Origin: a virus
Lineage: Duplodnaviria > Caudoviricetes
IMG/VR virus record: IMGVR_UViG_3300020420_001018
Coordinates: 1,650-65,649 of that record
DNA: 64,000 nt
Direction: 5' to 3' (one strand)
Shown here: positions 26,443 through 43,968 of the stretch, piece by piece
Layout of the letters: every line of letters starts with the position of its first letter
How positions within the stretch are numbered: the first letter of the stretch is position 1
Made by a program: the position numbers and the translations under genes
The notes under the pieces: generated by a model
What the model was told of the DNA's origin: nothing
Seen by the model: only the letters and a program-made list of their open reading frames with translations
Database searches by the model: none

Positions 26443-26682
26443 ATGATTATGGCTAGTTTAGACTTACACGGTTATTATGTACAAGATGCTTGGAGGGAGT
26501 TTGTAAAATTTGTCCACGAGAACAAGCATCAAGGTCTTAAGTATGTTACTGTTATTACAGGACAAGGTAAGATCAAAGAAGAATTTGAGCTATGGGTAGA
26601 AGCAAACGATAGCTTAAAACACTGTGAGTTACTGCCTAGTAATGGTGCTTACAGAGTATACTATAATAAGGAGTACAGATGA
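26443..26682 (+). CDS. stand-alone Smr domain protein
   Basis: LDLHG, VITGQG, NGA. Confidence 0.85.
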   Translation: MIMASLDLHGYYVQDAWREFVKFVHENKHQGLKYVTVITGQGKIKEEFELWVEANDSLKHCELLPSNGAYRVYYNKEYR

Positions 26683-26930
26683 GTACAGGTAAATTAAAAT
26701 GGTACAACGCTTCAAAAGGTTTCGGTTTCATAGTGCCTGATGAAGGTGGCAATGACGTTTTTGTTCATGTTTCAGCATTTAAAGATGCAGGAATCACAAA
26801 AGTAGATCAAGGCCAAGCAATGGAATATGTTGTTGCTGAGCACAACGGAAAACCTGTTGCAACTCAGTTAAAATTGACTGAAGCAACTGCTGAAGAAAAA
26901 CCTGCTGAATCAAATACTGAATCAGCATAA
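26679..26930 (+). CDS. cspA: cold-shock protein
   Basis: GKLKWYNASKGFGFI, DVFVHVSA. Confidence 0.95.
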   Translation: MSTGKLKWYNASKGFGFIVPDEGGNDVFVHVSAFKDAGITKVDQGQAMEYVVAEHNGKPVATQLKLTEATAEEKPAESNTESA

Positions 26931-26950
26931 TATATAACCTTAGGAGGTTC

Positions 26951-27373
26951 ATGGCAAAAGAAGTAACTGGTACTCTGAAATTAATTATAGAGGCAGGTCA
27001 GGCTAAACCTGCTCCACCGGTTGGACCAGCTCTTGGTCAACGTGGTATACAAATTATGGACTTTTGTAAAAAGTTCAACGATAAAACAAAAGGTATGGAA
27101 GGTCCCATACCTTGTCTTATAACAGTTTACAAAGATAAAAGTTTTACGTTCATACTTAAAAAACCACCTGTTACATATTACATATTAAAAGCAGTTGGTT
27201 TAAAGAAAGGTGGAAGAACACCTGGACGTAACGTGATCAAGTATATTACTAAAGAGCAAATTAGAAAAATTGCTGAAGAAAAAATGGAAGATATGAATGC
27301 TTTTACAGTGGAACAAGCAATGGAGCAAGTGGAAGGGTCATGTCGCTCTATGAGTATATCAGTAAAAAAGTAG
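26951..27373 (+). CDS. rplK: 50S ribosomal protein uL11
   Basis: AGQAKPAPPVGPALGQRG, FCKKFN, ITVYKDKSFTF, GSCRSM; AGGAGG RBS. Confidence 0.95.
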   Translation: MAKEVTGTLKLIIEAGQAKPAPPVGPALGQRGIQIMDFCKKFNDKTKGMEGPIPCLITVYKDKSFTFILKKPPVTYYILKAVGLKKGGRTPGRNVIKYITKEQIRKIAEEKMEDMNAFTVEQAMEQVEGSCRSMSISVKK

Positions 27374-27497
27374 TTATATAAAAATAGCATATCTGGTTTG
27401 CATTAAAAATACTTGAAAATTCAATTTTTCACACTATATAATATATAAATATGATTGGTAGTTAGCTACCCATTCACAGATTTTTAGGAGAAATTAA

Positions 27498-27674
27498 ATG
27501 AGACAAATAATAAATTTGCTCAAGTCTTTGACAGAAAGCCTTGGCAAACAAACTATAGATCAGTTCCAAATAAACACCAACGATCCTTTGTGGTGTTTAG
27601 CAAAAACTGAATACAGTCATGATCCTGTGTATGCTTATAGATGTTTAAAGAGAGGAGTAAATCCGCATGTTTAG
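27498..27674 (+). CDS. small hypothetical protein (58 aa, not in ORF track)
   Basis: AGGAG RBS; ...LAKTEYSHDPVYAY...; follows TATAAATA at 27444-27451. Confidence 0.6.
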   Translation: MRQIINLLKSLTESLGKQTIDQFQINTNDPLWCLAKTEYSHDPVYAYRCLKRGVNPHV

Positions 27675-27837
27675 TAAAATTTTAAATTTTATGTTTGCTC
27701 CCAGAAAGTCTTTTGAAGAAAAATATTTAGAGCAATCAGCAGATCATTACGATCTTGAAAGACGCCAAAGAGAGTTAGATAAAAGACAATTCAATGGCGG
27801 TAACTTTCGTACATTGTATAACAGATTTTTTATCTAA
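27667..27837 (+). CDS. DUF3563-like small protein (56 aa, not in ORF track)
   Basis: EKYLEQSADHYDLERRQRELD; GAGGAG RBS. Confidence 0.65.
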   Translation: MFSKILNFMFAPRKSFEEKYLEQSADHYDLERRQRELDKRQFNGGNFRTLYNRFFI

Positions 27838-27843
27838 AAAAGA

Positions 27844-27865
27844 AGCCTATAAAAGGCTATTTTTT
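27844..27865 (+). terminator. putative intrinsic terminator
   Basis: AGCCT/AGGCT stem followed by ATTTTTT. Confidence 0.5.
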
Positions 27866-27963
27866 GACCAAAAAATATAAGTACATTTGGTAGTAAGCCC
27901 AACGCCTCAGATTACATCAAAAGACGGTAAGCCGATCCCTTAATAATAACTTGGAGACAGTCT

Positions 27964-28167
27964 ATGGAAAAAATATTTAGATCCATGGGCGACGGGATCT
28001 TAATGCTCAATGCTGTGTTTAGTAAACAGCAAAGGTCACTCAAAGAGCCAGCCGACCAGTCGGATCAGGTGAAAAACTTTAAAAGATGGTTATCCTACGA
28101 GCCATCAAAACACTACTTTAAGGGTAAACAATCCCAAATAACAAAGGATTGTGACCCACATAAGTAA
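27964..28167 (+). CDS. hypothetical protein
   Basis: 67 aa, GGAG RBS. Confidence 0.55.
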   Translation: MEKIFRSMGDGILMLNAVFSKQQRSLKEPADQSDQVKNFKRWLSYEPSKHYFKGKQSQITKDCDPHK

Positions 28168-28172
28168 TCTTC

Positions 28173-28201
28173 TTGACAAGATGCGTTGTTTAGTATATTA
28201 T
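28173..28201 (+). promoter_or_regulatory. sigma70 promoter for queD
   Basis: TTGACA-17 nt-TATTAT. Confidence 0.7.
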
Positions 28202-28229
28202 ATAGATATGCTACAACGCATTTTGCATT

Positions 28230-28269
28230 TGAGGACTCAACGTCAACCCTCATTAAAAACTCTGCCGTT
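28230..28269 (+). ncRNA. preQ1-I-like riboswitch candidate
   Basis: TGAGG/CCTCA stem, 13-nt loop ending AAC, A-rich tail, loop AACG can pair with CGTT; located in the queD 5' UTR. Confidence 0.55.
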
Positions 28270-28286
28270 AGAAACAGGAGATAAAA

Positions 28287-28736
28287 ATGAGCAAATATTA
28301 TAGTACAAAAACATATGGACACAATATTGGGTTGGCCTGTGTATTCAGACAGCCTAACGCAGATCATTCACATTGTCATTTATTACATGGTTATAGTTTA
28401 CAGTTTAAATTTACTTTTGGCTGTGATAAACTAGATAATAAAAATTGGGCAGTTGATTTTGGTGGGCTAAAGCCTTTGAAAAAATGGTTAGAAGATCACT
28501 TTGATCATAAGACAGCATTGGATATAAATGATCCACATCTTGAAAAATTTAGAGAGTTAGAAGAACTAGATCTAGTAGACATTGTAACTTTTGATGGTGT
28601 AGGCGCAGAGAAATTTGCCGAACATGCCTTTAACTTTGCAGATAAACTTATTAGAGAAAAAACAGATAATCGTTGTTACGTTGTATCAGTAGAGTGTGCA
28701 GAACATGGTGCCAATTCAGCAATATATGAAGCATAA
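28287..28736 (+). CDS. queD: 6-carboxytetrahydropterin synthase (QueD/PTPS)
   Basis: CHLLHGYS, VDFG.LK, FDHK, EKFA, E...NSA.Y. Confidence 0.9.
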   Translation: MSKYYSTKTYGHNIGLACVFRQPNADHSHCHLLHGYSLQFKFTFGCDKLDNKNWAVDFGGLKPLKKWLEDHFDHKTALDINDPHLEKFRELEELDLVDIVTFDGVGAEKFAEHAFNFADKLIREKTDNRCYVVSVECAEHGANSAIYEA

Positions 28737-29395
28737 TGAAAACACACAAAGTTATCTTAGGTACACCAAGAAGTGGGTCTAGCTTTATAACCAGGTGGTA
28801 TTCAAATGAATATCCAGATTACACAGCATTATCGGAAGACAAAGGATTTGAGCATTTTGAACCAGATCATCCAGGCTGGCCTGCATTAGGTGACCAAGAA
28901 GGAATCGATAAGGAAACAAAATTAAGAATTCAAAAACTTGAAGATAAAACTATTTGGAAAATGCACCCTGGCCCGGATATGAGTAATCATATCTTTGAGT
29001 ACATATCTAAAATGCCAATAATTCTTGTAAAAAGAAAAGACTTATTAGGACAATTTATAAGTTATGGTGTTGGATGGACTACAAACAAGTGGGTTAATTT
29101 TGATTCAGAATCAAAATCAAAGAATGGATTAAAAGAAAGTTTTCACTATGAAAAAAAATGGTTCGATGATATGGTTTTTAGATTAAAAGATTTAGAAGAA
29201 AAACAAAGTAAATTAAATATTGAAAAACTAATATGGTTCGAAGATATTCCAAATTATAAAGTTAATGGAAAGTTGTCTGTGAGACAAAACGATTTTCCAA
29301 ATGAACAAAAGTTAAAATGGTTAATTAACTCAAATGAATTTATGAATTGGTTTTTAAAATTTAATGATTCATTTAAAATAAAGGAGACAATATGA
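28736..29395 (+). CDS. sulfotransferase-like P-loop protein
   Basis: GTPRSGSSF (5'-PSB), KRKDLLGQFIS (3'-PB). Confidence 0.65.
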   Translation: MKTHKVILGTPRSGSSFITRWYSNEYPDYTALSEDKGFEHFEPDHPGWPALGDQEGIDKETKLRIQKLEDKTIWKMHPGPDMSNHIFEYISKMPIILVKRKDLLGQFISYGVGWTTNKWVNFDSESKSKNGLKESFHYEKKWFDDMVFRLKDLEEKQSKLNIEKLIWFEDIPNYKVNGKLSVRQNDFPNEQKLKWLINSNEFMNWFLKFNDSFKIKETI

Positions 29396-29733
29396 AAAAT
29401 AATGTTTTTACAGATTATAATATTGTTGGTGAAACCACAGATACAAATGATGATTATTCAGTAGTCGAAACTAATGAATTAGAAACGTTATCAGTTGGCG
29501 GCATAAAAATTCAACCTGGTAAAAAATCATTCAGTCATTCACATCCAAATAATGATGAAATATATTATATTCATTCAGGAAAAGGAACAATGACAATTGG
29601 AGAAAATACTTTTGAAATTTCTTCAGGAAGTGTTATTCTATATGATGGAAAAGAAGATCATTATATAACCAATACAGGTGAAACTGAAATGTATCTCACT
29701 ATGGTATTCAATAACAAAGCAAAAAATGCCTAA
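29392..29733 (+). CDS. cupin_2 protein
   Basis: HSHPNNDEIYYIHSGKG, H.ITNTG. Confidence 0.85.
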   Translation: MKNNVFTDYNIVGETTDTNDDYSVVETNELETLSVGGIKIQPGKKSFSHSHPNNDEIYYIHSGKGTMTIGENTFEISSGSVILYDGKEDHYITNTGETEMYLTMVFNNKAKNA

Positions 29734-29756
29734 ATTTTTACATAAATAATATTATT

Positions 29757-31130
29757 ATGTTTATGGCGTTATTAACATTATTGACTGCCTTAAGTATTTC
29801 GGCAGTTGCGATATACTATTCCATATTAGGTTTAGCGGCTATTTTTGCAGGTGCGGCAATACCAATCATGGTTATGGGGTCAGTACTAGAAGTTGGAAAA
29901 CTTGTTACAGCTTCATGGCTATATCAAAACTGGAAAGTAGCACCGAGATTCATAAAGGCGTATCTATCAATTGCAGTAGTAGTATTGATGTTTATTACGT
30001 CAATGGGTATCTTTGGTTTCTTATCCAAGGCACACGTTGAGCAAACCTCATTAGGTACAATCGGTCAAGAAAAACTATCAACCATTAATGAAAAATTATT
30101 GCGTTCTGAAAATAGAATAGAACGTTGGTCAACTGACATTGATAGACTTATGAAGGGCGAAGATGTTAGGGTCGATATTTTAATTGATAAAGAATTAGTA
30201 GAATTAGACAAACTGTATGCACGTATTGATAATGAAAAACAAGCATTAAGAGATCAAGCAGACAAGGATATTGAACTACAAAACAACAGATTAAAACAAG
30301 CACAAGAACGTAAAGAGGCCGACATAGCCGCGGCACAAGAACGTTTTAAAGGTGCATTTAGTAAAAAAGGTTTAGATGAAGCAATAGCAAAAGCAACAGC
30401 AAACGAACTTGCTGTGGCGTCAGCGGCACAAAGAATTATAGTTGAAATACAAAACAAATTAAAAGAAGATCTTGCTAGTGTCGATGCCAAGTATGCCGAA
30501 CAAATTGCAAGTATTGAAGAAATAATTCAAGATTACAAGAATCAAGCAAATACAAAAACAGGTGATATTGAAGGTAAAATAATTGCACTAGAAGATCAAA
30601 TTGAAGCAGAACAAGATAAAATTGATCAAGTAAACGAAGATAAGATTGTGTTAATGAGTAAACAAGCACAATTAGAAGTTGAAGTTGGTCCATTAAAATA
30701 TATTGCAGAATTTGTATATGGTCAAGAAGCCGATCAAAACTTGTTAGAAGCGGCAGTACGTTGGGTAATTATTATTATTATAATTGTGTTTGACCCACTT
30801 GCAGTATTACTTTTAATTGCGGCCAATATGTCATTTATTAGACGTTTCGGAAGAGGATTTGAAAAACAATATGATCCAGCTCTAGTAAAGAAGTATGCAC
30901 AAGGTGACATACAACAATCAAACGATAAAGAAATGGATGACCTAAAAAAAAGACATGAAGTTGAGTTAGATGAATTTCGTGAAAAACTTTCACAAGCAGA
31001 ACAAGAACTACAAGAGCAATTAGAATATCAGGAACAACAAGCAAAAGAAAAACCAGATAAAATGGTAATCAATATCGATGAATCGATAAACGTTAAATCC
31101 GATGATGACGTTAAGAAAAAAAAAGACTGA
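29757..31130 (+). CDS. membrane-anchored long coiled-coil protein
   Basis: About 3 N-terminal TM helices, ~220-aa coiled coil, further TM (VIIIIIIVFDPLAVLLL); ends just after an A9 run. Confidence 0.8.
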   Translation: MFMALLTLLTALSISAVAIYYSILGLAAIFAGAAIPIMVMGSVLEVGKLVTASWLYQNWKVAPRFIKAYLSIAVVVLMFITSMGIFGFLSKAHVEQTSLGTIGQEKLSTINEKLLRSENRIERWSTDIDRLMKGEDVRVDILIDKELVELDKLYARIDNEKQALRDQADKDIELQNNRLKQAQERKEADIAAAQERFKGAFSKKGLDEAIAKATANELAVASAAQRIIVEIQNKLKEDLASVDAKYAEQIASIEEIIQDYKNQANTKTGDIEGKIIALEDQIEAEQDKIDQVNEDKIVLMSKQAQLEVEVGPLKYIAEFVYGQEADQNLLEAAVRWVIIIIIIVFDPLAVLLLIAANMSFIRRFGRGFEKQYDPALVKKYAQGDIQQSNDKEMDDLKKRHEVELDEFREKLSQAEQELQEQLEYQEQQAKEKPDKMVINIDESINVKSDDDVKKKKD

Positions 31131-31393
31131 CCGCTAACGATCACGTTCAACTAAAGGTTGAAGAAATAGAAATTACTCCAGTAAAAAAAGATAATAGGCC
31201 AGAAGTGCAAATGAAGTTCCGAGAAGATCTAAATGTGAACATCAAAGAATTTAAAAAAGAGATTGACATTGAGCAAAATCGTGTTATTATAAATAAAACA
31301 ATGAAAGCCGATAGTTTAAAAAGATCAAAAGATAAACCAACATCAGTTGGTTGGTTAAAACCATATGTCGGTAAAATAGATAAGAAGGATTAG
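31115..31393 (+). CDS. -1 frame extension of 29757 ORF, or separate small ORF from 31205
   Basis: Frame is open from 31115 across the A9 run to TAG at 31391-31393. Confidence 0.55.
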   Translation, partial: EKKRLTANDHVQLKVEEIEITPVKKDNRPEVQMKFREDLNVNIKEFKKEIDIEQNRVIINKTMKADSLKRSKDKPTSVGWLKPYVGKIDKKD

Positions 31394-32653
31394 ATGGTAA
31401 AGAAAAAAGGTGAATCTTATGATTGTTCTTTTTGTGGAAAAGAACGTGCAAAAGTTAAAAAATTAATAGCAGGTCCTAAAGTTTATATTTGTAACGAATG
31501 TGTTGATTTATGTTATTCAATCTTAGAAGAAAATGATATCAATCAAAAAAAAGAAGGACAAAAATCAAAAGCATTAAAAACAATTATACCAGATGAATTA
31601 AAAATGCATTTAGACGAGCATGTAATTGGTCAAGAACAAGCAAAAAAAGTTTTATCAGTTGCTGTATATAATCACTATAAAAGATTAAACAATCCCACAG
31701 TGGATGGCGTTGAATTAGAAAAATCAAATGTGTTGTTAGTTGGGCCAAGTGGTTGCGGTAAAACATTGTTAGCTCAAAAGATCGCAGATTATTTAGATGT
31801 GCCTTTTGCACAGGCTGATGCGACTACATTAACAGAATCAGGTTATGTAGGTGATGATGTTGAAAATATTATTTTAAGATTATTACAAAGTTGTGATTTT
31901 GATGTCGAACGTGCTGAAAAAGGAATAGTTTACATTGACGAGGTAGATAAAAAATCACGCAAGTCAGAAAACACTTCAATTACAAGAGACGTTTCAGGAG
32001 AAGGTGTACAACAAGCATTGTTAAAATTACTTGAAGGTACAACTGTTAGAGTTCCACCTCAAGGAGGAAGAAAACATCCACAACAGGAAATGATTGAAGT
32101 TGATACTACAAACATTTTATTTGTTTGTGGCGGAGCATTTGTTGGTTTAGATGATATTGTAAAACGTAGATTAAATGTTAATACGTCAATGGGATTTATG
32201 TCAAATTTTGAATCGCAAGAAGAAATAGATCAGATATTAACGAAAGTACAGCCTGATGATGTTGTTAAGTTTGGTCTTATACCAGAAATGGTAGGTAGAC
32301 TGCCTGTAGTAGTCTCGTGTCATAGTTTAACGCACACAGACCTTAAACACGTATTAACCAAGCCAAAAAATGCAGTTTTAAAACAGTTTGAAAAAATGTT
32401 TAAATTAGATGGTGTTGAATTAGAATTTACAAATGAAGCAATAGATGTTGTAGCCAAACAGGCTCTTGAAAAAGATATTGGTGCAAGAGGATTACGTTCT
32501 GTTCTTGAAAGAATTTTGTTAGAACTACAATATGAATTGCCTTTGTTAAAACAACAAGATGTTGAAAAAATTGTAATCAACGATGCAGTAATTCTAAAAG
32601 ATAAATCTCCATTACTAATTTACAAAACAGTAGATAAGAAAAACGGAGCATAG
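31394..32653 (+). CDS. clpX: Clp protease ATPase ClpX
   Basis: CSFCG...CNEC Zn domain, [37 protein letters not shown] loop, GARGLR. Confidence 0.97.
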
Positions 32654-33207
32654 TGAAAAAACCTTTTCGCCATAGGAATCAACAACCAAATGTGCTATTA
32701 AATTCAGCCATTACATTTCCGAAAGTTAGGCTTATTGATCCTAACGGGTCATTCATTGGTATAGTTGATAGCAAAACAGCACTTGTAAAAGCTAAAGAAA
32801 GTTCTTTAGATCTTATTTGTACCACAGTCAAAGCAGATCCTCCTGTGTGTCGTATTATGGATTTCGGAAAATGGAACTATGAAAGACAAAAGAAAGAAAA
32901 ACAAAAGAAAAAATTAGAAAGACAAAATAGAGTAGAGCTTCGTGAATTACAATTCAGGCCAAATATTGATGTGCATGATCTTAATGTTAAACTTAAAAAA
33001 GCACAAGAATTTATTGACGATGGAGATAAAGTCAAGATTGTAATGAAGTTGCGTGGTAGAGAAATTCCAAACGGAAGAATGTTTATCGATCAAATAAACA
33101 TGATGGTAAAGAAAATACAAAATAGTAAATTTGATTCAATACCGAAACAGGCCGGAAATAGAATTTTAGCAGTTATTTGTAAAGACAATGATGCAAAAAA
33201 GAGTTGA
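32653..33207 (+). CDS. infC: translation initiation factor IF-3
   Basis: VRLID..G, LDL, PPVCRIMDFGK, FRPNIDVHDL, GDKVK, RGRE; GTG start. Confidence 0.93.
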   Translation: MKKPFRHRNQQPNVLLNSAITFPKVRLIDPNGSFIGIVDSKTALVKAKESSLDLICTTVKADPPVCRIMDFGKWNYERQKKEKQKKKLERQNRVELRELQFRPNIDVHDLNVKLKKAQEFIDDGDKVKIVMKLRGREIPNGRMFIDQINMMVKKIQNSKFDSIPKQAGNRILAVICKDNDAKKS

Positions 33208-33240
33208 CAAATTATATAAATATGTTAATATAGTGTTATT

Positions 33241-33585
33241 ATGAAATCAGGAAAACCAAGACAAAAATACGATACTAAATCATTTGATATAGAATACAAC
33301 GTCAATAATAAAAGAGAACGTAAACCACGTCCTCCGAAATTACCAGGCATGGCAGTAACAGTAGTTGACAACAATGTCGAACGTGCAATGCGTAAACTTA
33401 AAAAGATGTTGCTTAAAGAAGGAGTCATGCAAGAACTTCGAGACAGGCGTTACTATATGAAACCGTCGTTTATAAAACGTGAAGATAAAAAACGTGCAAT
33501 CCGAAGAGCGGCAAAATTACGTAGAGAACGTGAAATTGAAGAATTCGGTGGCGGAGTACCTAAGAAAAAAACTAGAAGAAGATAA
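33241..33585 (+). CDS. rpsU: 30S ribosomal protein bS21 with N-terminal extension
   Basis: VVDNNVERAMRKLKK..KEG...ELRDRRYYMKPS; own TTGACA and TATAAATA promoter elements at 33204-33231. Confidence 0.9.
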   Translation: MKSGKPRQKYDTKSFDIEYNVNNKRERKPRPPKLPGMAVTVVDNNVERAMRKLKKMLLKEGVMQELRDRRYYMKPSFIKREDKKRAIRRAAKLRREREIEEFGGGVPKKKTRRR

Positions 33586-33588
33586 TCC

Positions 33589-34314
33589 ATGTTACAGAAT
33601 GAAATTTCAGATTGGATTAAAGACTATGCAAAATCTAATAATCGAAAAACATTAGTTGTAGGAATTTCAGGTGGGATCGATTCGGCAGTAGTTAGTACTT
33701 TGTGTGCTATGACCAAAATGCCTACTATCGCAGTTTCCATGCCAATTAATCAAATAGAAGATCAACATGATTTAAGTATAGATCATGGCAATTGGTTAGA
33801 AAGTAAATTTAAAAATGTTAAACATGAAGTAATTGACTTAGATGGAGTTTATGAAAAGTTTTGGTTAAAAACATTTAATGACTATGGCAGTGAACATGCA
33901 TTTGCAAATACAAAATCAAGATTAAGAATGGTTACACTACATCAAATATCAGGTGACAGACAAGGTATAGTTGTAGGCACAGGTAATAAAGTAGAAGATT
34001 TTGGTGTAGGTTTTTATACCAAATATGGAGATGGAGGAGTAGACATCTCCCCAATAGCTGATTTAATGAAATCAGAAGTATGGCAACTAGGAAAAGATCT
34101 AGGAGTTATGCAAGAAATTATTGATGCTCCACCAACAGATGGTTTATGGGAAGATGGTAGAACAGACCAAGATCAATTAGGCGGTCTTACATATGATCAA
34201 ATGGAAGAAGCTATGGTCAAAGGAGAGGCTAGTGAATATTACGATAAATATCAAAGTATAAGGAAGCCAAACCTACACAAGATGGATCCAATCCCAGTTT
34301 TCAAAAAAAAGTAG
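33589..34314 (+). CDS. nadE: NH3-dependent NAD+ synthetase
   Basis: GISGGIDSA, NTKSRLRM, GTGNKVE, FYTKYGDG, PPTDGLW. Confidence 0.95.
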   Translation: MLQNEISDWIKDYAKSNNRKTLVVGISGGIDSAVVSTLCAMTKMPTIAVSMPINQIEDQHDLSIDHGNWLESKFKNVKHEVIDLDGVYEKFWLKTFNDYGSEHAFANTKSRLRMVTLHQISGDRQGIVVGTGNKVEDFGVGFYTKYGDGGVDISPIADLMKSEVWQLGKDLGVMQEIIDAPPTDGLWEDGRTDQDQLGGLTYDQMEEAMVKGEASEYYDKYQSIRKPNLHKMDPIPVFKKK

Positions 34315-34343
34315 TTAGGCTTACTTTTTGATAGGTAAAATGT

Positions 34344-35708
34344 ATGACTAACTCGAATGACGAACAGCAAAAATATTCAGTAGATAAAATAAACGAATTA
34401 TCTAAAAAACTTAACCGTAATTTAGATACGGATACTTTTTGTATTCAACCTTTTATGCATCTTAGCACAACACCAAATGGTCAAATACGTTTGTGTTGTA
34501 GGTCTCAAAAAATTGCAGATGCGTCTGATACTACATTTAAAGATGTTTGGTATAGTGATCATATGAATGAAATAAGAAAGAATATGATTGATGGTGATAA
34601 GAAAAAATTACCAGAATGTGTAAACTGCTGGTCAATGGAAAGCAAAGGTATAATGAGTTTACGTCAAGGGCAAAACATTACGAGAATAGATAGATATTCA
34701 AAAAATGTAAGATCTTGGTTAGATTACTCAGAAGGAAATCAAGAAACATTTCCGTTTACAATTCCTGTATTAGAATTAAAACCTTCAAACTTATGTAATT
34801 TTAAATGTAGAATGTGCTGGCCTAAAGACTCAACACCATGGATGGCAGATTGGGATAGTGTAAAAGAATTTTATCCAGAAGGAGATAGAGGTCCAGTTGA
34901 AAATGATATTAAACGTTTCAATATGAATAAAAGTCCATTGATTAATTTATTTGAACAACAAAAAAACTTTATTGATGAGTTTAAAGAACTTGCTCCATCG
35001 CTAGATGAAGTAGAATTTGCAGGTGGAGAACCTTTATTAGATCCTTTGGTATTTAAAACTTTAAAAATATTAGGTGAACAAGAAAATGTTAAAACTGAAA
35101 ATATTGTTTTAAAGTATAGTACAAATCTCAGTAAGTTAAATTTTAGTAAAAAAATGGATATTATTGAATTATGGAAAAAATTTAAAAGTATAAAACTTAC
35201 TATTAGTATAGATGGGGATCCAGAAAGAAACAAATACATACGTCATGGTGCAGATAGTTGGCTATTAAAAGAAAATTTAGCAATAGTAAGAAAAGAATTA
35301 GGAAACAAAGTAGAAGTAAAAGCAACAACAACAGTACAAGCATTAAATACTCCATATTTGGCAGAAACAGGACAATGGATAGTAAGAGAATTAAATTGTA
35401 ATTGGCATACTTCAAGATTGCAATGGCCTAAGCACTTGCATTCTAACGTATTACCTGTTAATATACTAGAAGAAAGTATAAAAAAAATAAAAAAAGTAAA
35501 TGTAAATTTATTAAAAGATACAATGGATAGTGAAATAGAAAAATATAGGTTAGAAACGCAGTTCAATAATGTAGTTCACTGGTTAACAAGTTGTATGAAT
35601 GATAACAAACACAAAAAATATTATAATGATTTTGTTAACTTTAATAAAGTTTTAGATAAAAATAGGGGAATGGCAATAGAAGATTATTGTCCGTTAGTAT
35701 TAAAATGA
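34344..35708 (+). CDS. radical SAM protein with N-terminal twitch/SPASM-like domain
   Basis: FC..P...CC...CxxC, then CNFKCRMC, AGGEP, STN, ISIDG. Confidence 0.9.
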   Translation: MTNSNDEQQKYSVDKINELSKKLNRNLDTDTFCIQPFMHLSTTPNGQIRLCCRSQKIADASDTTFKDVWYSDHMNEIRKNMIDGDKKKLPECVNCWSMESKGIMSLRQGQNITRIDRYSKNVRSWLDYSEGNQETFPFTIPVLELKPSNLCNFKCRMCWPKDSTPWMADWDSVKEFYPEGDRGPVENDIKRFNMNKSPLINLFEQQKNFIDEFKELAPSLDEVEFAGGEPLLDPLVFKTLKILGEQENVKTENIVLKYSTNLSKLNFSKKMDIIELWKKFKSIKLTISIDGDPERNKYIRHGADSWLLKENLAIVRKELGNKVEVKATTTVQALNTPYLAETGQWIVRELNCNWHTSRLQWPKHLHSNVLPVNILEESIKKIKKVNVNLLKDTMDSEIEKYRLETQFNNVVHWLTSCMNDNKHKKYYNDFVNFNKVLDKNRGMAIEDYCPLVLK

Positions 35709-36085
35709 CAGTAGAGCATAAACATCTAATAGTTAGAGCCGAAGTTAACAAGCCACCAACTAATCAAAAATGGGCTCACACATGGTTAACAGATTTAGTA
35801 GCAAAAATTGGTATGCAAATATGCCAAGGACCAATTACAACTTATTTAGATATGCCTGGTAACAGAGGATTAACTGGTTTAGTAATTATAGAAACTTCAC
35901 ACATAGCATTACATTGTTGGGATGAAACTGATCCTGGACTACTACAATTAGATGTGTACACTTGTGGAAGTTTACCAACAGAAATAATATTTGAAGAAAT
36001 TAAACAATTTGATCCTGTTAAAGTTGAATATAAGTATCTCAACAGAGAACGTGGATTAACAGAAATTAATATTAAGGGTGATTAG
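35705..36085 (+). CDS. speD: S-adenosylmethionine decarboxylase proenzyme
   Basis: KHLIV, IETSHIALHCW (pyruvoyl Ser), LDVYTCG; stop codon lies inside tRNA-Val. Confidence 0.88.
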   Translation: MTVEHKHLIVRAEVNKPPTNQKWAHTWLTDLVAKIGMQICQGPITTYLDMPGNRGLTGLVIIETSHIALHCWDETDPGLLQLDVYTCGSLPTEIIFEEIKQFDPVKVEYKYLNRERGLTEINIKGD

Positions 36086-36151
36086 CTCAGTTGGTAGAGC
36101 ACCTCGTTTACACCGAGGGGGTCGTTGGTTCGAGTCCAGCATTACCCACCA
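36076..36151 (+). tRNA. tRNA-Val(TAC)
   Basis: 76-nt cloverleaf GGGTGAT/ATTACCC, TT-TAC-AC loop, CCA. Confidence 0.96.
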
Positions 36152-36155
36152 TTAC

Positions 36156-36231
<76 letters not shown>

Positions 36232-36252
36232 ATAGTAAGGATAAGTAAGAGT

Positions 36253-37701
36253 ATGCCAGAAGTAAAAGATAGAAAAAAAATTGAAGATAAACTAGCCAAA
36301 GAATACAGTGCTGGCTTTGTTACCGATGTGGAAAGCGAAACATTCGAGCCAGGCCTTAACGAAGAAATAGTTACAAGACTTTCAAAAATAAAAAATGAAC
36401 CACAATGGTTATTAGACTACAGATTAAAAGCATATCGACGTTGGACAGAAATGAAAGAACCAGATTGGTCGACACTTGAAATTGATCCTATTGATTATCA
36501 ATCGATAAGTTATTACTCTAAACCAAAGCCAAAGTTAAAGTCCATGGATGAAGTTGATCCTGAAGTACTTGCAACATTTGAAAAGTTAGGTATTCCCACG
36601 TCAGAACGGGCGGCATTGGCAGGAGTGGCAGTAGATGCCGTGTTTGATTCTGTATCTGTAGCAACAACATATCATAAAGAATTATTAGAAAAAGGAATTA
36701 TATTTTGTTCTTTTGGAGAAGCAGTACAAAAGTATCCTGATCTTGTTAAAAAATATTTAGGTACAGTTATTCCAAGAACAGATAATTATTTTGCTACACT
36801 TAATTCAGCAGTATTTTCAGATGGCACATTTTGTTACATTCCTAAGAACACAAGATGTCCAATGGAACTATCAACATATTTTAGAATAAATGCTTCAAAT
36901 ACAGGACAGTTTGAAAGAACACTAATTGTTGCTGATGAAGGAAGTTATGTAAGTTATTTAGAAGGTTGCACAGCACCAATGCGTGATGAAAACCAATTAC
37001 ATGCGGCTAATGTAGAATTAGTTGCTATGAAAGATGCAGAAATAAAATATTCAACAATACAGAATTGGTATCCGGGAGATCCAGAAACAGGCAAAGGTGG
37101 TATCTATAACTTTGTGACCAAGAGAGGATTATGCAAAGGTGAAAATTCTCGCATAACCTGGACTCAATTTGAAACAGGAAGTAGATTGACATGGAAGTAT
37201 CCATCTTGTATACTAAAAGGAGACAATTCAATTGGAGAATTTTATTCAGTAGCACTAACTAATGGATATCAACAAGCTGACACAGGTACTAAAATGATAC
37301 ATCTTGGGAAGAACACTAAAAGCACAATTATATCAAAAGGAATTTCAGCAGGCAAATCTACTAATACATATAGAGGTTTAGTGCAAGTTGGTAAACGTGC
37401 CACAGGTGCTAAAAACTTTACTGCTTGTGATTCGTTAATGATGGGAGATCAATGTTCTGCTATAACTATTCCTTATATAGATAGTAAAACAAGAAAAAGT
37501 ACTTGTAATCACGAAGCAACAACATCTAAGATAGATGAAGATCAATTATTTTATTGTAGGCAAAGAGGATTAAGTGAAGAAGATGCAACTAACTTATTAG
37601 TATCAGGATTTTGTAAAGAAGTATTCCAAAAACTTCCTATGGAGTTTGCTGTTGAAGCCAACAAATTGTTAGAAGTTAGTATGGAAGGTTCTGTAGGATA
37701 A
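36253..37701 (+). CDS. sufB: Fe-S cluster assembly scaffold SufB
   Basis: [55 protein letters not shown]. Confidence 0.97.
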
Positions 37702-38276
37702 TGGAAATAAAAAATACTCACACGGAAACTATAAATTTAGAAAAAGATTCAGTTTTGAATTATACTTTGAAACCAAATTCATCTGCTAGATTGTTTTTTC
37801 ATGATCGTGCTGGTGTTGATGTAAAGATTAATATAGATTTAGAAGAAAACGCTTCTTGTGAAATGTATGGCTTGTTCCATAATGAAGGAAGAGATCCAAA
37901 AGTCGTTACAAAAGTAACACATAAAGGTAAGAAGTCAAAATGTGATCAAGATTTTAGATTTGTAAACAAAGACTGTGAAAGTTCTTTTGAGGGAAAAATT
38001 ACCATTCCAAAAGGTGTAACAGGATGTGAAAGTCATATGTTAAATAAAAATTTATTATTAGATGATGATTCTTTTGCATTCTCAAAACCAGAACTAGATA
38101 TCAAAAATGATGATACAATATGTTCACATGGTGCAACAACAGGTCCTCTAGATCAAGAGCAAGTGTTTTATCTTAGAAGCAGAGGTATACCTGAATCAGA
38201 AGCCATTGAGATTTTGATTGAAGCATTTTATCAAGATATCAAGAATAGAATGGGAGAACCTATAATGGGGGTGTAG
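37701..38276 (+). CDS. sufD: short SufD-like protein
   Basis: FEGKI, NLLL, KPELDI..DD..CSHGAT.G.LD.EQ.FYLRSRGI; only 191 aa; stop codon lies inside tRNA-Asp. Confidence 0.85.
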   Translation: MEIKNTHTETINLEKDSVLNYTLKPNSSARLFFHDRAGVDVKINIDLEENASCEMYGLFHNEGRDPKVVTKVTHKGKKSKCDQDFRFVNKDCESSFEGKITIPKGVTGCESHMLNKNLLLDDDSFAFSKPELDIKNDDTICSHGATTGPLDQEQVFYLRSRGIPESEAIEILIEAFYQDIKNRMGEPIMGV

Positions 38277-38343
38277 CTCAGTTGGTTAGAGCGTCCGCCT
38301 GTCACGCGGAAGGCCGAGGGTTCGAGTCCCTTCACTCCCGCCA
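38267..38343 (+). tRNA. tRNA-Asp(GTC)
   Basis: 77-nt cloverleaf GGGGGTG/CACTCCC, CT-GTC-AC loop, CCA. Confidence 0.96.
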
Positions 38344-38354
38344 GAAAAAATAAA

Positions 38355-38630
38355 ATGTTATTATGGATATCGAGAATTATACAAACAATAGATTTCAACT
38401 ACATAGGCAATTGGAGTGGTTCTAAGATGAATTTACCTCAATGGGAGTCAAGATGGAGAAAGTGTTTTGCCTGGTATCCGGTTAAATTAGATGACGGAGA
38501 CGTAATTTTTTTAAAAAATTATTGGGTGAATGAATCATATATGCAAAATCCATATAATGGTGCAAAAGGATATATGGTAAAAACAAGAATATCAGAAAAC
38601 GATCGTGTATTAAACAAATTAAGAAAGTAG
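38355..38630 (+). CDS. hypothetical protein (start uncertain)
   Basis: WRKCFAWYPV motif. Confidence 0.55.
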   Translation: MLLWISRIIQTIDFNYIGNWSGSKMNLPQWESRWRKCFAWYPVKLDDGDVIFLKNYWVNESYMQNPYNGAKGYMVKTRISENDRVLNKLRK

Positions 38631-38634
38631 TAAA

Positions 38635-38883
38635 ATGATTGATTTAGAAAATTTAGATCTGCGTACATTACAAAAAGAGGCCGCTCGTGCTTTGGCAACA
38701 CATATTGATAGTACAAATAACGGATTGTCTGAAATTAACAAAAAATGTCATCACAACTCTACTATATTCTACATAGAAGTAATTAAAAAGTATGCAGAAA
38801 CTTATGGAGATTTACCTAGCAAAGCTGGACCTGGCCAAAAAATTGAACTTTTTTCTGAAAAAATTGAAAAAAAATCCTCTTAG
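38635..38883 (+). CDS. hypothetical protein
   Basis: 82-aa ORF. Confidence 0.65.
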   Translation: MIDLENLDLRTLQKEAARALATHIDSTNNGLSEINKKCHHNSTIFYIEVIKKYAETYGDLPSKAGPGQKIELFSEKIEKKSS

Positions 38884-38947
38884 GCTCTTGACTTTTTAAA
38901 AATAGTGCATATATTATACATATACAGTAAAACTGTATAAATACTAG

Positions 38948-39006
38948 TGTAGATTGCTTTAGATAGGATCTACATTAAAACAACTTGCTTAAAAGGAGGA
39001 GTTAAC
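38948..39006 (+). promoter_or_regulatory. ROSE-like RNA thermometer candidate in the hsp20 leader
   Basis: TGTAGAT/ATCTACA hairpin, then CTTGCT (38984-38989) able to pair with the AGGAGG SD. Confidence 0.55.
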
Positions 39007-39447
39007 ATGACAAGAAATCTATCTATTTTTAATCAGTTACGTCCTGTAACTATTGGGTTTGATGACGTTTTCAATCATTTTGAAAGTATGTTTGATGGTG
39101 ACGTTTTCACAGCACCCACAGTAAATTATCCACCTTACAATATTGTAAGAACTGGTGACAATACCTACGATATTGAAGTCGCACTTGCTGGTTTTAGCAA
39201 AAAAGACATCAATGTTGAGTATGCTGAAAATATACTTACTATTAAATCTGTAAAATCAGATGAAAGTAAAGAGTCAAAAGATGGAGTTATCCACAAAGGA
39301 ATCTCAAAAAGACAATTTACAAAGTCATTTACAATTGCAGATGATGTAGAAGTAAAAGGTGCTGAACTAAAAGATGGTTTGCTTCGTGTATCTATGGAAA
39401 GAATTATTCCAGAGAGCAAAAGGCCAAAAACTATTCAAATTAAGTAA
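39007..39447 (+). CDS. ibpA: small heat-shock protein Hsp20/IbpA
   Basis: IGFD, NYPPYNI, IEVALAGF, HKGISKR.F..F, DGLL, IPE. Confidence 0.95.
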   Translation: MTRNLSIFNQLRPVTIGFDDVFNHFESMFDGDVFTAPTVNYPPYNIVRTGDNTYDIEVALAGFSKKDINVEYAENILTIKSVKSDESKESKDGVIHKGISKRQFTKSFTIADDVEVKGAELKDGLLRVSMERIIPESKRPKTIQIK

Positions 39448-39472
39448 CCTTAATTAACATAATACATTATGC

Positions 39473-39511
39473 GGAACCCCGGTAATACGAAACAATGCCG
39501 GGGTTTCTCTT
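39473..39511 (+). terminator. hairpin/terminator after hsp20
   Basis: GGAACCCCGGTA / TGCCGGGGTTTC 12-bp stem including G-T pairs. Confidence 0.65.
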
Positions 39512-39552
39512 GAAGACGATAAATAACTATATATTATTAGGGAAATAAGAAC

Positions 39553-40119
39553 ATGGCAATATTATCATTAAAAAAACACAGCATCTTCCTAAAGTGGTGG
39601 TGGTTCTTTACATTAATTGTAGCACTCACTGTAGTATTAATTGGATTCAATGTACACGAAGACTTATGGTTAAAAGACAAAACAAAATTATCTTTTTTCA
39701 TTCTTTTTATTTTTTATGCAATGACTTTACATTGCGGTTATGAAAGTTGGAAGTTAAGTCAACTTGCAAACGGTGACATAGAAAAATTAGAAAATTTAGA
39801 CACAAGGCATGAGCCAGGTTGGTTTGCATCTGATGTATTACTTACACTTGGATTAATTGGAACAGTGGCAGGGTTTATTTTAATGTTAGCAGGAGCATTC
39901 ACAGGAATTAATATTGCTAACGTATCGTCAGTACAACAAGCATTGGCAAGTATGGCGGTAGGTATGTCAACAGCATTGTACACGACACTTACAGGTTTGA
40001 TAACAAGTACAATTTTGAAAGTTCAATATTTTAGATTGGACCAAGACTTGGAACGTTACAGAACACTACAAGCAGAAAAACTAGTTGAGAGAGTAGTAAC
40101 AGAGCAGAAAGGCAACTAA
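39553..40119 (+). CDS. MotA/TolQ/ExbB proton-channel family protein
   Basis: LGLIGTVAGFI and GMSTALYTTLTGL TM signatures. Confidence 0.85.
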   Translation: MAILSLKKHSIFLKWWWFFTLIVALTVVLIGFNVHEDLWLKDKTKLSFFILFIFYAMTLHCGYESWKLSQLANGDIEKLENLDTRHEPGWFASDVLLTLGLIGTVAGFILMLAGAFTGINIANVSSVQQALASMAVGMSTALYTTLTGLITSTILKVQYFRLDQDLERYRTLQAEKLVERVVTEQKGN

Positions 40120-40120
40120 C

Positions 40121-40792
40121 ATGGCAACGACACGTCATCGAAGTTACGGATCACAAGTTGCGTTTATTGATTTGTTGTTTAATACACTCGTTGGGTTTGT
40201 ATTTCTATTCATAATGGCATTTATATTAATCAATCCAATAGCAAAAAAATCAAACGTAGAAATAGTTGCAGAATATATTGTAAAAATAACATGGCCAACT
40301 GATTCTCCGGACGATATTGATTTATGGATGAGAGATCCACTAGGTAATTACGTAGGATTCAAATCAAAAGATGTTGGATTAATGAGTTTGAATAGAGATG
40401 ATTTAGGTACGTCAAATGATACAGTGTATGATCCTAAAGGAAAACCAATTAAAGTTTTTAGAAATGAAGAAATGGTTACTATCAGAGGAATAGTACCAGG
40501 AGAGTATATAGTAAACGTTCATTATTACAATAAGAAAATAGCAGTAGAAAATAATGGTGAAAAAAATTATGTACCAATGCCAATTCAAGTACAAATTGAA
40601 AAGATAAATCCATACAATGTTGTATTTGCAAGAGAAGTATTTTTAGATCGTAAAGGTCACGAAGTAACAGTTACAAGATTTACAGTAAATGAAGATGGCT
40701 CAGTCACAGATTTTAATACCTTGTCCTATGGAATAGTTGGTAGAGTAGAAAACACTTCTACATCAGGGCAATGGGTACCAGGAGGTTTATAG
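40121..40792 (+). CDS. ExbD/MotB-like partner (TM with conserved Asp) plus YfaP-like periplasmic domain
   Basis: AFIDLLFNTLVGFVFLF; W...DDIDLW..DP, DDLG, E.VTIR...GEY.VNVHYY. Confidence 0.65.
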   Translation: MATTRHRSYGSQVAFIDLLFNTLVGFVFLFIMAFILINPIAKKSNVEIVAEYIVKITWPTDSPDDIDLWMRDPLGNYVGFKSKDVGLMSLNRDDLGTSNDTVYDPKGKPIKVFRNEEMVTIRGIVPGEYIVNVHYYNKKIAVENNGEKNYVPMPIQVQIEKINPYNVVFAREVFLDRKGHEVTVTRFTVNEDGSVTDFNTLSYGIVGRVENTSTSGQWVPGGL

Positions 40793-40793
40793 A

Positions 40794-41366
40794 ATGATAC
40801 AAGGTCACGTATTTTTAGTTTTGTTATTAATGATGATTGGTGCCACAGTATTATGGATCTTCATAGCATCAGCTAACACAAGATGGTTTCTAAAAGCTAC
40901 ACTGACAACATTAATGTTGTTTTCAATATTAAGTGCTTGGATAGGATTAAAAACAATGTATGGATATCCATATCATGCTTGGCCAGACAATGAAAAATAT
41001 ATTATGGTTGGGTCATATGTTGAAGAACCTGAAATAAAACAACCAGATTCTGGAGCAATATATCTTTGGTTAATCGACAACAATAGGAATATAACTGGAA
41101 AATCTTGGATAGATATTATATCAGGTGTAATTAATGGTAGACAACCTCGCGTTTATGTTATACAATATACAAGAGATATGCATGAAGAAATTGACAAGCT
41201 AGAAAAAATGAGACAAGGTAAGCCAATGCCAATTAGTTTGATTAAAAAAGAAGAGGCAGAAGAAAAAATGGAATCACATCTTGGCAACGACACAGAACGT
41301 AGGCAAGAATATATTCCATACATAATGCCAGATGCAGTAGTATTAGAAAAAAATCAACAAGGATAA
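40794..41366 (+). CDS. membrane protein
   Basis: Two N-terminal TM helices; third gene of the ExbBD-like trio. Confidence 0.7.
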   Translation: MIQGHVFLVLLLMMIGATVLWIFIASANTRWFLKATLTTLMLFSILSAWIGLKTMYGYPYHAWPDNEKYIMVGSYVEEPEIKQPDSGAIYLWLIDNNRNITGKSWIDIISGVINGRQPRVYVIQYTRDMHEEIDKLEKMRQGKPMPISLIKKEEAEEKMESHLGNDTERRQEYIPYIMPDAVVLEKNQQG

Positions 41367-41369
41367 AAA

Positions 41370-41681
41370 ATGACAGAACAAGGTAACGCAAACGTACAAG
41401 CTTCAACAAGCACACAAACTACATTAAATGAGCCAGGACAATACCATGTGTACTTGTTAAATGATGATTATACACCTATGGATTTTGTTACTGAAATTCT
41501 TAAAACAATTTTTAGAAAATCACCACAAGATGCTGAAGCTGTTATGCTAAAAATACATGAAGAAGGTAAAGGTATAGCAGGAACATACGCACATGAAATT
41601 GCAGAACAAAAAGCAATTGAAACAACAGCACAAGCAAGGGCACAAGGCCATCCTTTAAATTGTACCATCGAGAAAGCCTAA
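41370..41681 (+). CDS. clpS: N-degron adaptor ClpS
   Basis: YHVYLLNDDYTPMDFV, MLKIHEEGKG, EIAEQK, HPL. Confidence 0.95.
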   Translation: MTEQGNANVQASTSTQTTLNEPGQYHVYLLNDDYTPMDFVTEILKTIFRKSPQDAEAVMLKIHEEGKGIAGTYAHEIAEQKAIETTAQARAQGHPLNCTIEKA

Positions 41682-41684
41682 TAA

Positions 41685-42650: not shown

Positions 42651-42654
42651 CAGC

Positions 42655-42682
42655 TTGACAAAATTACAAAAACAACTATAAT
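42655..42682 (+). promoter_or_regulatory. sigma70 promoter
   Basis: TTGACA-16 nt-TATAAT. Confidence 0.7.
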
Positions 42683-42694
42683 ACAGTAATAAAT

Positions 42695-43267
42695 ATGAGT
42701 GAAATGATTATACAAACAGAACCAACACCAAATCCGAACGCATTAAAGTTCTTGCCTAATGTGGAAGTTAGAGGAAATAAAACACCATTGTTTTACAAAA
42801 AAGATCCTCAAAACAATCCAGAAGCAGATGCTCCTGTGGCATACGCATTGTTTAAGATAAATGGAATCCAAGATGTATTTTTTGGATCTGATTTTATTAC
42901 CATAGGTAAAGAAGATACAGTTGAATGGGAATCAATTAAATCAGATATCGTAGAAACTATCAGATATCATAGTCAAGGACCATTTGTAATTGAAGCAGTA
43001 AAACCTGCGTGTGATGAAATTAATTCAGATGCAGGAACTGACAAAATTACTAAAAAGGTTAAACAATTATTAGATGAAAGAGTAAGACCTGCTGTTGCAA
43101 TGGATGGTGGAGATATAATCTTTCATGATTTCAAGGATGGAACAGTATATTTAGAAATGTATGGTGCGTGTTCAGGTTGTCCAAGTTCAACTGCTACTTT
43201 AAAAATGGGTATTGAGAATATGCTAAAACATTACATACCTGAGGTACATACTGTTGAAGCAGTATAA
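42695..43267 (+). CDS. nfuA: Nfu Fe-S carrier (Nfu_N + NifU_C)
   Basis: IQTEPTPNPNALKF, VFFGSDFITI, RVRPAVAMDGGDI, GACSGCPSS. Confidence 0.93.
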   Translation: MSEMIIQTEPTPNPNALKFLPNVEVRGNKTPLFYKKDPQNNPEADAPVAYALFKINGIQDVFFGSDFITIGKEDTVEWESIKSDIVETIRYHSQGPFVIEAVKPACDEINSDAGTDKITKKVKQLLDERVRPAVAMDGGDIIFHDFKDGTVYLEMYGACSGCPSSTATLKMGIENMLKHYIPEVHTVEAV

Positions 43268-43947: not shown

Positions 43948-43968
43948 CCAATAACAATAGAAAAGATT

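Follow-up and report, generated by a model that had tools for sequence, protein, structure and literature searches.

A conserved pseudoknot in the leader of phage QueD-like genes, most likely a preQ1-I-variant riboswitch

Whether the leader of a QueD-like gene in a marine phage houses a metabolite-sensing RNA, and how such an RNA would relate to the known preQ1-I riboswitches, is the question raised by a 64,000-nt stretch of Caudoviricetes DNA (IMG/VR record IMGVR_UViG_3300020420_001018, positions 1,650-65,649; hereafter the window, meaning the whole stretch). A first-pass annotation of positions 28173..28736 had described a promoter, a preQ1-I-like pseudoknot, a ribosome-binding site and a phage queD gene, and every element of that description was recovered at its coordinates upon re-reading the interval. 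Comparison of related leaders confirms, at the level of sequence, a real, conserved and phage-restricted pseudoknot in the leader of the QueD-like gene, which is most likely a preQ1-I-variant riboswitch and probably ON-acting. We assign a probability of roughly 0.55 to the reading in which a 40-nt phage-restricted relative or analogue of preQ1-I senses a guanine-faced heterocycle of the pathway and turns translation of the QueD-like gene on; small-molecule binding, the identity of the ligand and the ON direction are what we infer.

No description of a riboswitch at phage queD was found in the full-text literature searched, most subscription journals being outside its coverage, and the word riboswitch does not occur in the available portions of Hutinet 2019 and Hutinet 2023. 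According to the accessible part of McCown et al. 2017 (PMC5473149), phages seldom make use of known riboswitches and may rely on classes not yet discovered. The motif described here would, if the reading is true, constitute such an undiscovered phage class. Uncultured phages of marine and fresh water carry it in abundance, and it is linked to a single enzyme of the 7-deazaguanine pathway. If validated, it would be the first sensor RNA governing a viral DNA-modification route and the first ON-wired preQ1-like aptamer, as well as a very small natural aptamer (40 nt) whose altered first and third loops (L1 and L3) would show the retuning of a minimal pocket.

Architecture, covariation and distribution of the pseudoknot

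The putative aptamer is an H-type pseudoknot of 40 nt at 28230..28269 (this and all features below lie on the + strand), delimited by covariation and by a covariance model, R1, which was built with the second helix (P2) only and has a single match in the window (28230-28279, 52.5 bits, E about 2e-8). The first helix, P1, pairs UGAGG (28230..28234) with CCUCA (28248..28252). Between its strands lie L1, ACUC (28235..28238), with C28236 and U28237 invariant; the P2 5' strand (28239..28245), consisting of AACG (28239-42), U28243, which enters a U.C mismatch, and CA (28244-45), which enters an extension; and L2 (28246..28247), made up of A28246, which is A, U or C in the family, and the invariant C28247, a candidate specificity base by analogy with the specificity cytosine of preQ1-I. 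Downstream of P1 come L3, UUAAAAACUC (28253..28262), an A-rich run followed by YUC in which A28259, U28261 and C28262 are invariant, and the P2 3' strand (28263..28269), with UG (28263-64) for the extension, C28265 as the mismatch partner and CGUU (28266-69). Both strands of P2 and the 3' strand of P1 are delimited by covariation. The A-rich tail TTAAAAAC noticed in the first-pass annotation occupies 28253-60, the linker (C)TCTGC 28260-65 and the loop end AAC 28245-47. Across the family the 5' part reads N-GAGG (P1), an L1 of ACU plus 0-7 variable nt, a P2 5' strand of 3-7 nt and UCA-N-C, and the 3' part reads CCUC-N' (P1), NNAAANAY, UCUGC and then immediately the P2 3' strand. A subgroup of loci (L025, L035, L045, L053, L062, L066, L069, L073 and L079) combines a short P1 (AAGG/CCUU or AGG/CCU) with an L3 reduced by 4 nt (CUAAYUCUGC), so that both lengths shift together.

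The IMG/VR proteins were scanned with the QueD-like protein, which returned 593 stretches with relatives, and a common motif was visible upstream of the QueD-like genes in the best 80 of these 593 loci, which were kept; a DNA pattern scan fixing GAGGACT, CCCTC and TCTGC contributed at least 120 further stretches. A first alignment, A1, held 78 distinct and cleanly aligned motif sequences, its rows having been filtered for at least 3 pairs in each of P1 and P2. With P1 and P2 read jointly as a pseudoknot, 91.5% of the cells of A1 were paired, against 75.1% in column shuffles (none of 500 shuffles as high) and 35-50% once the partners were slid; of the 14 pairs, 11 displayed changes on both sides, and the three junction-proximal P2 pairs had no unpaired cell and 4-6 pair types each. 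Because A1 had been retrieved in part by a pattern that fixes GAGG/CCTC and had been filtered for pairing, the count was repeated on a second alignment, A2, composed of the R1 matches in loci found by protein similarity alone (53/80 plus the window, giving 54 matches, 30 of them distinct). Here 89.2% of the cells were paired, against 68.0% in shuffles and 37-50% with slid partners, and over both alignments the three junction-proximal P2 pairs had 0-1 unpaired cells and 3-6 pair types. In P1, pair 3-28 of A2 was A-U in 22 rows and C-G in 8, none being unpaired, pair 2-29 was GC in 24, AU in 4 and other in 2, and additional variants such as AGUGG/CCACU and ACCGG/CCGGU were encountered. P1 TGAGG/CCTCA and the possible P2 AACG/CGTT of the first-pass annotation thus both covary among phage queD leaders, with 89-92% of cells paired, and the P2 that it had advanced tentatively proves to be correct.

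Beyond the U.C mismatch, P2 appears to continue with a C-G and then an A-U pair (CA/UG), set within invariant UCA and UGC flanks. The latter pair (22-40) was A-U in 74 rows of A1 and G-C in 4, and a scan for bases other than A at this position yielded 84 distinct sequences. Those with good P1 and P2, 63 in number, all combine UCG with UCCGC (extension CG/CG), as do 10 more having a 5-bp P1 and a GGGA-type P2, while the remaining 11 resemble chance matches. As judged from these sequences, the extension pair is likely, but not proven, to be real.

Fourteen positions are invariant in 30/30 distinct A2 sequences (G28233, G28234, C28236, U28237, U28243, C28244, C28247, C28248, C28249, A28259, U28261, C28262, G28264 and C28265), and eight of these stand outside Watson-Crick pairs. 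The first base of L1, ahead of the invariant C and U, is A in 25/30 and U in 5/30 of the sequences, and the base preceding C28247 is A in 17, U in 12 and C in 1 of the 30. In the window the composite pattern TGAGG..AACCCTCA..AAAAAC is found a single time, and none of 100 window shuffles contains it.

Regarding gene association, 111 of the 149 pattern instances among the listed loci precede a PTPS-like open reading frame (ORF), representing 69 distinct motif sequences, and the other 38 are GC-rich instances with no PTPS-like ORF downstream. The R1 matches in 53 of the 80 closest QueD-like loci each lie just 5' of the gene, and five large phage records, which add up to 1.29 Mb, gave exactly one R1 match apiece, always just 5' of the QueD-like gene. 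When prokaryotic genomes were scanned (185,579 species, one genome each), the strict pattern was found in three stretches from two metagenome-assembled genomes (MAGs): L321 and L322 in 'Rickettsiales bacterium MED657' and L323 in 'Nitrospira sp.', on a 4.1-kb contig. A QueD-like ORF was seen downstream of the motif in L321 and L323, and the three stretches are probably phage contigs binned into MAGs. Prokaryotic matches to a looser pattern (at least 120 stretches) were discarded as chance hits, given that 0 of the 101 parsed had P1, P2 or a PTPS gene. In eight cultured-phage loci (BUCT-ZZ01, Motura, PhiXhv-12, Mendera, immuto_2-6A, Ssp-JY38, PA5oct and phiST) R1 had no match, and an unfiltered search of phiST, Motura and immuto scored no higher than 7.5 bits; the QueD-like proteins of cultured phages are all below 60% identity (127 records). 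At the level of these sequence scans, the motif is shown to be restricted to phages and tied exclusively to QueD-like genes.

Relation to preQ1-I and other RNA families

In the available portions of two published accounts, the 2024 review of the family (PMC11625349) and a paper on the type III structure (PMC10622847), class I preQ1 riboswitches fold as H-type pseudoknots whose P1 measures 5-6 bp; their specificity cytosine directly precedes the P1 3' strand within an AC or UC dinucleotide, the ligand is also contacted by an L1 uridine and by the last A of an A-rich L3, and the Shine-Dalgarno (SD) sequence is occluded in the bound state. Named examples comprise types I-III and the leaders of B. 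subtilis queC, T. tengcongensis and E. coli yhhQ. Compared with the class as those portions describe it, the phage motif is likewise an H-type pseudoknot in the size range of about 35-40 nt, its P1 having 5 bp and a G/C top and its P2 forming between loop and 3' tail; its C28247 is immediately 5' of the P1 3' strand, in an AC that the window shares with types II and III; its L3 is rich in A, the last A (28259) being invariant; and it resides in the leader of a preQ0-pathway gene family. As no terminator-like site occurs between the motif and the QueD-like ORF, control by the phage motif would be translational.

The differences are as marked as the likenesses. Where preQ1-I has U(U) in L1, with the ligand-contacting U6 or UU right on top of the P1 5' strand, the phage motif has A/U-C-U plus 0-7 variable nt, its uridine thus standing two positions later. 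In preQ1-I the A-rich L3 passes straight into the P2 3' strand; here the A-run is followed by three conserved nt (YUC), the 2-bp UG/CA extension, the U.C mismatch and only then the variable P2. With 4-7 pairs plus the extension this second helix is the longer one, and it leaves the SD outside, ending 6 nt 5' of AGGAG, and the predicted alternative pairings would hide the SD or the AUG in the unbound state, opposite to the OFF wiring of preQ1-I. The motif is, moreover, confined to phages; the available part of the 2024 preQ1 review (PMC11625349) has 0 occurrences of 'ON switch' or 'phage'. The first-pass annotation had already remarked upon a longer linker and a non-canonical 5' side of the loop, and both remarks hold, given the divergent L1 and the extra conserved YUCUGC after the A-run.

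In Rfam 15, no riboswitch family was matched by the whole window at gathering score, and no preQ1 or other riboswitch match was obtained at E<=10 for a 301-nt piece of the window and 18 diverse loci; weak matches to other families (miRNA, RUF1, Mu-gpT-DE) were set aside as noise. That RF00522, RF01054 and RF02680 all stay unmatched is consistent with the term 'variant' used in the first-pass annotation. Judging from its sequence features, the motif is a preQ1-I-like variant rather than a member of the class, with which it shares the layout while failing several features of membership. This much of the earlier proposal of a variant riboswitch stands, namely the variant pseudoknot, and the riboswitch function itself is a predicted role.

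Other small regulatory RNAs offer partial parallels. The preQ1-II (RF01054) and preQ1-III (RF02680) riboswitches are also pseudoknotted and likely share a related ligand family, but, in the available part of PMC11625349, they belong to the HLout type of pseudoknot, contain more helices and measure about 80-100 nt, as opposed to the 40 nt of the phage motif. The THF-II riboswitch (folE motif), also small, likewise precedes a gene of the GTP-to-pterin pathway as a leader RNA, and a guanine-faced pterin is a possible ligand here too; it is described as simply built and located ahead of bacterial folE genes (PMC6800512, as far as available), its fold type is another, and the phage motif had no Rfam match. 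Glutamine riboswitches of cyanophages and marine myophages are, in the accessible text of PMC5473149 and PMC9004378, among the few riboswitches reported in phage genomes; that class is shared with bacteria, whereas the phage queD motif had no bacterial counterpart in the scans made.

Predicted control, candidate ligands and rival explanations

The gene that follows the motif (28287..28736) encodes a QueD-like protein of the PTPS family with 149 aa and the signature HCxxxHGY (Pfam PTPS 52.7 bits, cut-off 22.4; phrog_2389, QueD-like, 139.3 bits). Its score against NCBIfam QueD (TIGR03367) is 36.3 bits, below the equivalog cut-off of 89.25, so that the 'queD' label of the first-pass annotation holds as PTPS-family or QueD-like and falls short as QueD proper. 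QueD (6-carboxytetrahydropterin synthase) carries the active-site and zinc motif CxxxHGH. The corresponding segment of the window protein is HCHLLHGY, and in an alignment with E. coli QueD (4ntm) that is weak (E = 0.03) Y36 faces H33 and F20 faces H16; the metal site may thus differ from that of canonical QueD, Tyr36 lying opposite the zinc ligand His33 in that weak alignment. Relatives at 38-44% identity include the QueD of Cellulophaga phage phiST and of Flavobacterium phage immuto_2-6A, phages whose DNA guanines, in the available part of PMC10516641, are fully replaced (by dDG in phiST and by fdPreQ1 in immuto_2-6A) and which encode DpdA3.

The pathway was surveyed in the five large motif-carrying records, two of which are 96-99% complete (G001 and G002). 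FolE was found in 5/5, and so was, near FolE, a divergent QueE-like radical-SAM gene, which in the three scanned as proteins scored 34-53 bits, below the family cut-offs of 200-300. QueC had no match in 4/5 of these records, and the fifth gave a borderline match (16.6 bits, or 24.8 with in-frame neighbours, versus a cut-off of 22). With no clear QueC found in the carriers, the pathway of these phages may end short of preQ0 and preQ1. The Pfam TGT model found nothing in the window's record or in the five carriers; this negative is uninformative, since the same search is blind to the DpdA3 of phiST and immuto_2-6A, in which it also found nothing. A search with the DpdA3 of phiST (CGPG_00065) gave one unconvincing match of 13.3 bits in the five carriers and none in the window's record. 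None of QueC, FolE and TGT was found in the 65.6-kb record of the window, which says nothing about the whole phage as that record is rated 8% complete. In the near-complete carrier locus L324 (G002:C1:122000-132000), the gene order is FolE, HIT, the motif and QueD-like gene, two unknowns, a B12-radical-SAM C-methyltransferase, QueE-like, an unknown and a nucleotidyltransferase; in Synechococcus phage BUCT-ZZ01 (L327) it is QueE, xanthine-guanine phosphoribosyltransferase, a hypothetical gene, QueD and FolE. The gene clusters around the QueD-like genes suggest an uncharted 7-deazapurine route.

The SD of the QueD-like gene, AGGAG (28276..28280), is located 6 nt after P2 (CGTT) and 6 nt before the ATG at 28287. 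Leaders of other clades show complementarity of the P2 3' strand, with its flank, either to the start region or to the SD, as in AAGUCAUC/GAUGACUU, UGCCAUUG/CAAUGGCA, CCAUUAUU/AAUAAUGG and ACUCC/GGAGU. Over 76 distinct leaders, the probability of an unpaired AUG was 0.09 in the free nested ensemble, 0.42 with the aptamer bases withheld and 0.21 with an aptamer swapped in from another clade. Among 39 sequence classes, the duplex that the aptamer 3' half forms with the start region averaged -8.65 kcal/mol when matched versus -6.85 when mismatched, 0/2000 permutations being as low when related sequences are treated as independent. An L083-type leader has a comparatively strong OFF helix (-8.1 kcal/mol, z = -2.0). 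In the window, sequestering the aptamer raised the unpaired probability of the SD from 0.11 to 0.98 and that of the AUG from 0.07 to 0.73. The alternative pairings predicted there are CUCAUU (28249-54) with AAUGAG (28286-91), at a pair probability of about 0.5-0.6, and a weak anti-SD hairpin (28261..28281; UCU.C.GUU at 28261-69 with AAC.G.AGA at 28273-81) that would compete with P2 and cover the SD. These models suggest that the family is wired as an ON switch, in which formation of the knot would free the initiation region. For the window itself the direction is drawn by analogy from the other clades, because its own sequestering helices are weak.

The mechanism that we favour can be put as follows. 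The ligand would be a guanine-faced heterocycle made by, or feeding, the phage pathway of FolE, QueD-like and QueE-like enzymes, a guanine-like Watson-Crick face being expected from a cytosine as specificity base. The invariant C28247 would read this ligand, whose binding would fix P1, P2 and the conserved L3/UCUGC segment in the knot, withdrawing the 3' segments of the aptamer from pairing with the ribosome-binding site and so turning translation of the QueD-like gene on. Candidate ligands would be 7-carboxy-7-deazaguanine (CDG), 7-deazaguanine, preQ0, preQ1, dihydroneopterin triphosphate, 6-carboxytetrahydropterin (CPH4) and guanine derivatives, and an ON switch would suit a signal from a substrate or precursor better than one from an end product. 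In a bolder form, which we hold only tentatively, the motif would be a virus-only class, derived from preQ1-I or convergent with it and rewired to ON, whose ligand is an intermediate of a QueC-less route (CDG or 7-deazaguanine) or a pterin precursor (dihydroneopterin triphosphate or CPH4), and which times a DNA-hypermodification enzyme by precursor supply.

Several observations weigh against the ON-acting preQ1-I relative. There is no Rfam match to preQ1-I, -II or -III, and an ON switch on a biosynthetic gene would be unusual if the ligand were the product of the pathway. In the window, the CUCAUU/AAUGAG duplex amounts to -5.7 kcal/mol against the family mean of -8.65, and the anti-SD hairpin (-2.9 kcal/mol, z = -0.18, equalled by 72/200 shuffles) is indistinguishable from chance. 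The sampling is biased, at least 120 loci having come from the GAGGACT/CCCTC/TCTGC-fixing pattern and A1 having been pair-filtered, and the sequences are related, which inflates the significance given by the shuffle controls. Few events may lie behind the G-C form of the extension pair, and its U-to-C change also strengthens anti-SD pairing (CUCC/GGAG); on account of both points the pair is graded as likely. Promoter-like sites are not enriched as a class in 27800-28900 (4 versus 4.1 +/- 2.3 expected), and the nested folding energy of the leader is no better than that of shuffles (z = -0.20), as is expected for a pseudoknot; the case against chance rests on comparison for these two reasons. 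Lastly, the invariant loops could equally serve a protein.

This last point leads to the strongest rival, a translational operator bound by a protein, such as the QueD-like enzyme itself or a phage repressor, with no metabolite sensing, which we consider rather unlikely. Phage translational operators can be RNA pseudoknots or hairpins, as those of T4 gene 32 and regA, and such a precedent, together with invariant unpaired bases that fit recognition by a protein as well as by a ligand and a single copy per genome on a single gene, lends the idea some credit. Yet the motif is kept across very divergent phages, several QueD-like subfamilies and different neighbour genes, it is very small and has the layout of a known metabolite aptamer, including the cytosine before the P1 3' strand, and its competing SD and AUG pairings are typical of riboswitch expression platforms.

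Distinctly unlikely, in our view, is a structural element independent of any ligand, be it a stabiliser of the mRNA, a translational enhancer or standby site, or an RNA thermometer. Weak alternative helices in the window would allow the knot to form always, and a 21-bp hairpin just upstream suggests features of RNA processing or stability. However, eight invariant non-helical positions exceed the needs of a purely structural knot, the complementarity to start codon or SD differs between clades and is nevertheless maintained, and the exclusive link to one enzyme family argues for pathway-specific sensing.

We regard as very unlikely that the motif is an ordinary preQ1-I member, binding preQ1 and repressing translation (OFF) by hindering access of the ribosome. 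The fold type, the 5-bp P1, the cytosine before the P1 3' strand and the A-rich L3, as known from the portions of the literature cited above, would all agree with membership, as would a gene of the preQ0 pathway family and a window P2 that ends only 6 nt before the SD. Nonetheless, RF00522 is unmatched at gathering score or E<=10 (window and 18 loci), L1 opens with A-C-U in place of U(U), an invariant YUCUGC separates the A-run from the variable P2, no SD bases lie within P2, the alternative pairings point to ON, and the five large carriers, two of them at least 96% complete, have no clear QueC. A chance resemblance devoid of function would agree with the unremarkable folding of the single sequence, and is hardly credible in view of covariation and conservation across more than 140 distinct sequences and of the 0/100 window shuffles that reproduce the composite pattern.

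Promoter, upstream hairpin and neighbouring genes

A sigma-70-like promoter precedes the motif at 28173..28201 (TTGACA at 28173-78, a 17-nt spacer and TATTAT at 28196-201; 11/12 consensus matches), and from its position the transcript would start at about 28208. TTGACA-17-TATAAT also stands directly 5' of the motif in the related loci L021 and L036-L041. Contigs from metatranscriptome libraries span 28196-28304 (X15) and 28075-28241 (X18); they were not counted as support, since such contigs cannot reveal the start, the strand or true transcription. Overlapping the -35 spacer, the -10 element and the predicted start is an inverted repeat or hairpin of about 21 pairs (28174..28227, arms 28177-89 and 28213-25; -24.7 kcal/mol, z = -5.87), which none of 200 shuffles equals in folding. 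It stops 3 nt before P1, its 3' arm repeats the sequence CAACG of the P2 5' strand (28214-18), and it could be an operator or an insulator or, for upstream transcripts, a terminator or a processing site of the RNase III type.

The window has 32% GC and all its genes on one strand. It encodes ribonucleotide reductase, L11, S21, IF-3, ClpX, ClpS, SufB/D-like proteins, NifU, cytochrome b, further proteins and 5 tRNAs, and the size of the viral record (65.6 kb) at a CheckV completeness of 8% hints at a very large phage. Host-like genes are dense in 26443-45258, where Smr, a CspA-like protein, L11 (26951-27373), ClpX (31394-32653), IF-3 (32653-33207), S21 (33241-33585), NAD synthase, a radical SAM/SPASM protein, SufB/D-like proteins, Hsp20, ClpS, SbmA/BacA, NifU, an HhH-GPD glycosylase and cytochrome b are encoded. 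The order ClpX, S21, hypothetical, QueD-like and heat-shock protein in Pseudomonas jumbo phage PA5oct (L333, MK797984.1 170907-172547) recalls the ClpX / IF-3 / S21 ... Hsp20 neighbourhood of the window; there the QueD-like gene abuts the previous gene and R1 finds no motif.

Two genes follow the QueD-like gene at 28736-29733, their start codons overlapping the preceding stop. The first encodes 219 aa with a P-loop-like motif, GTPRSGSS, and no family match, and the second a cupin of 113 aa. No homologue of either was found among the 80 related loci, and neither is likely to belong to the regulated unit as it is conserved. The closest relative is L006, in which the 457-aa protein of the window (29757-31130) comes directly after the QueD-like gene, and the 219-aa and cupin genes look like a local insertion.

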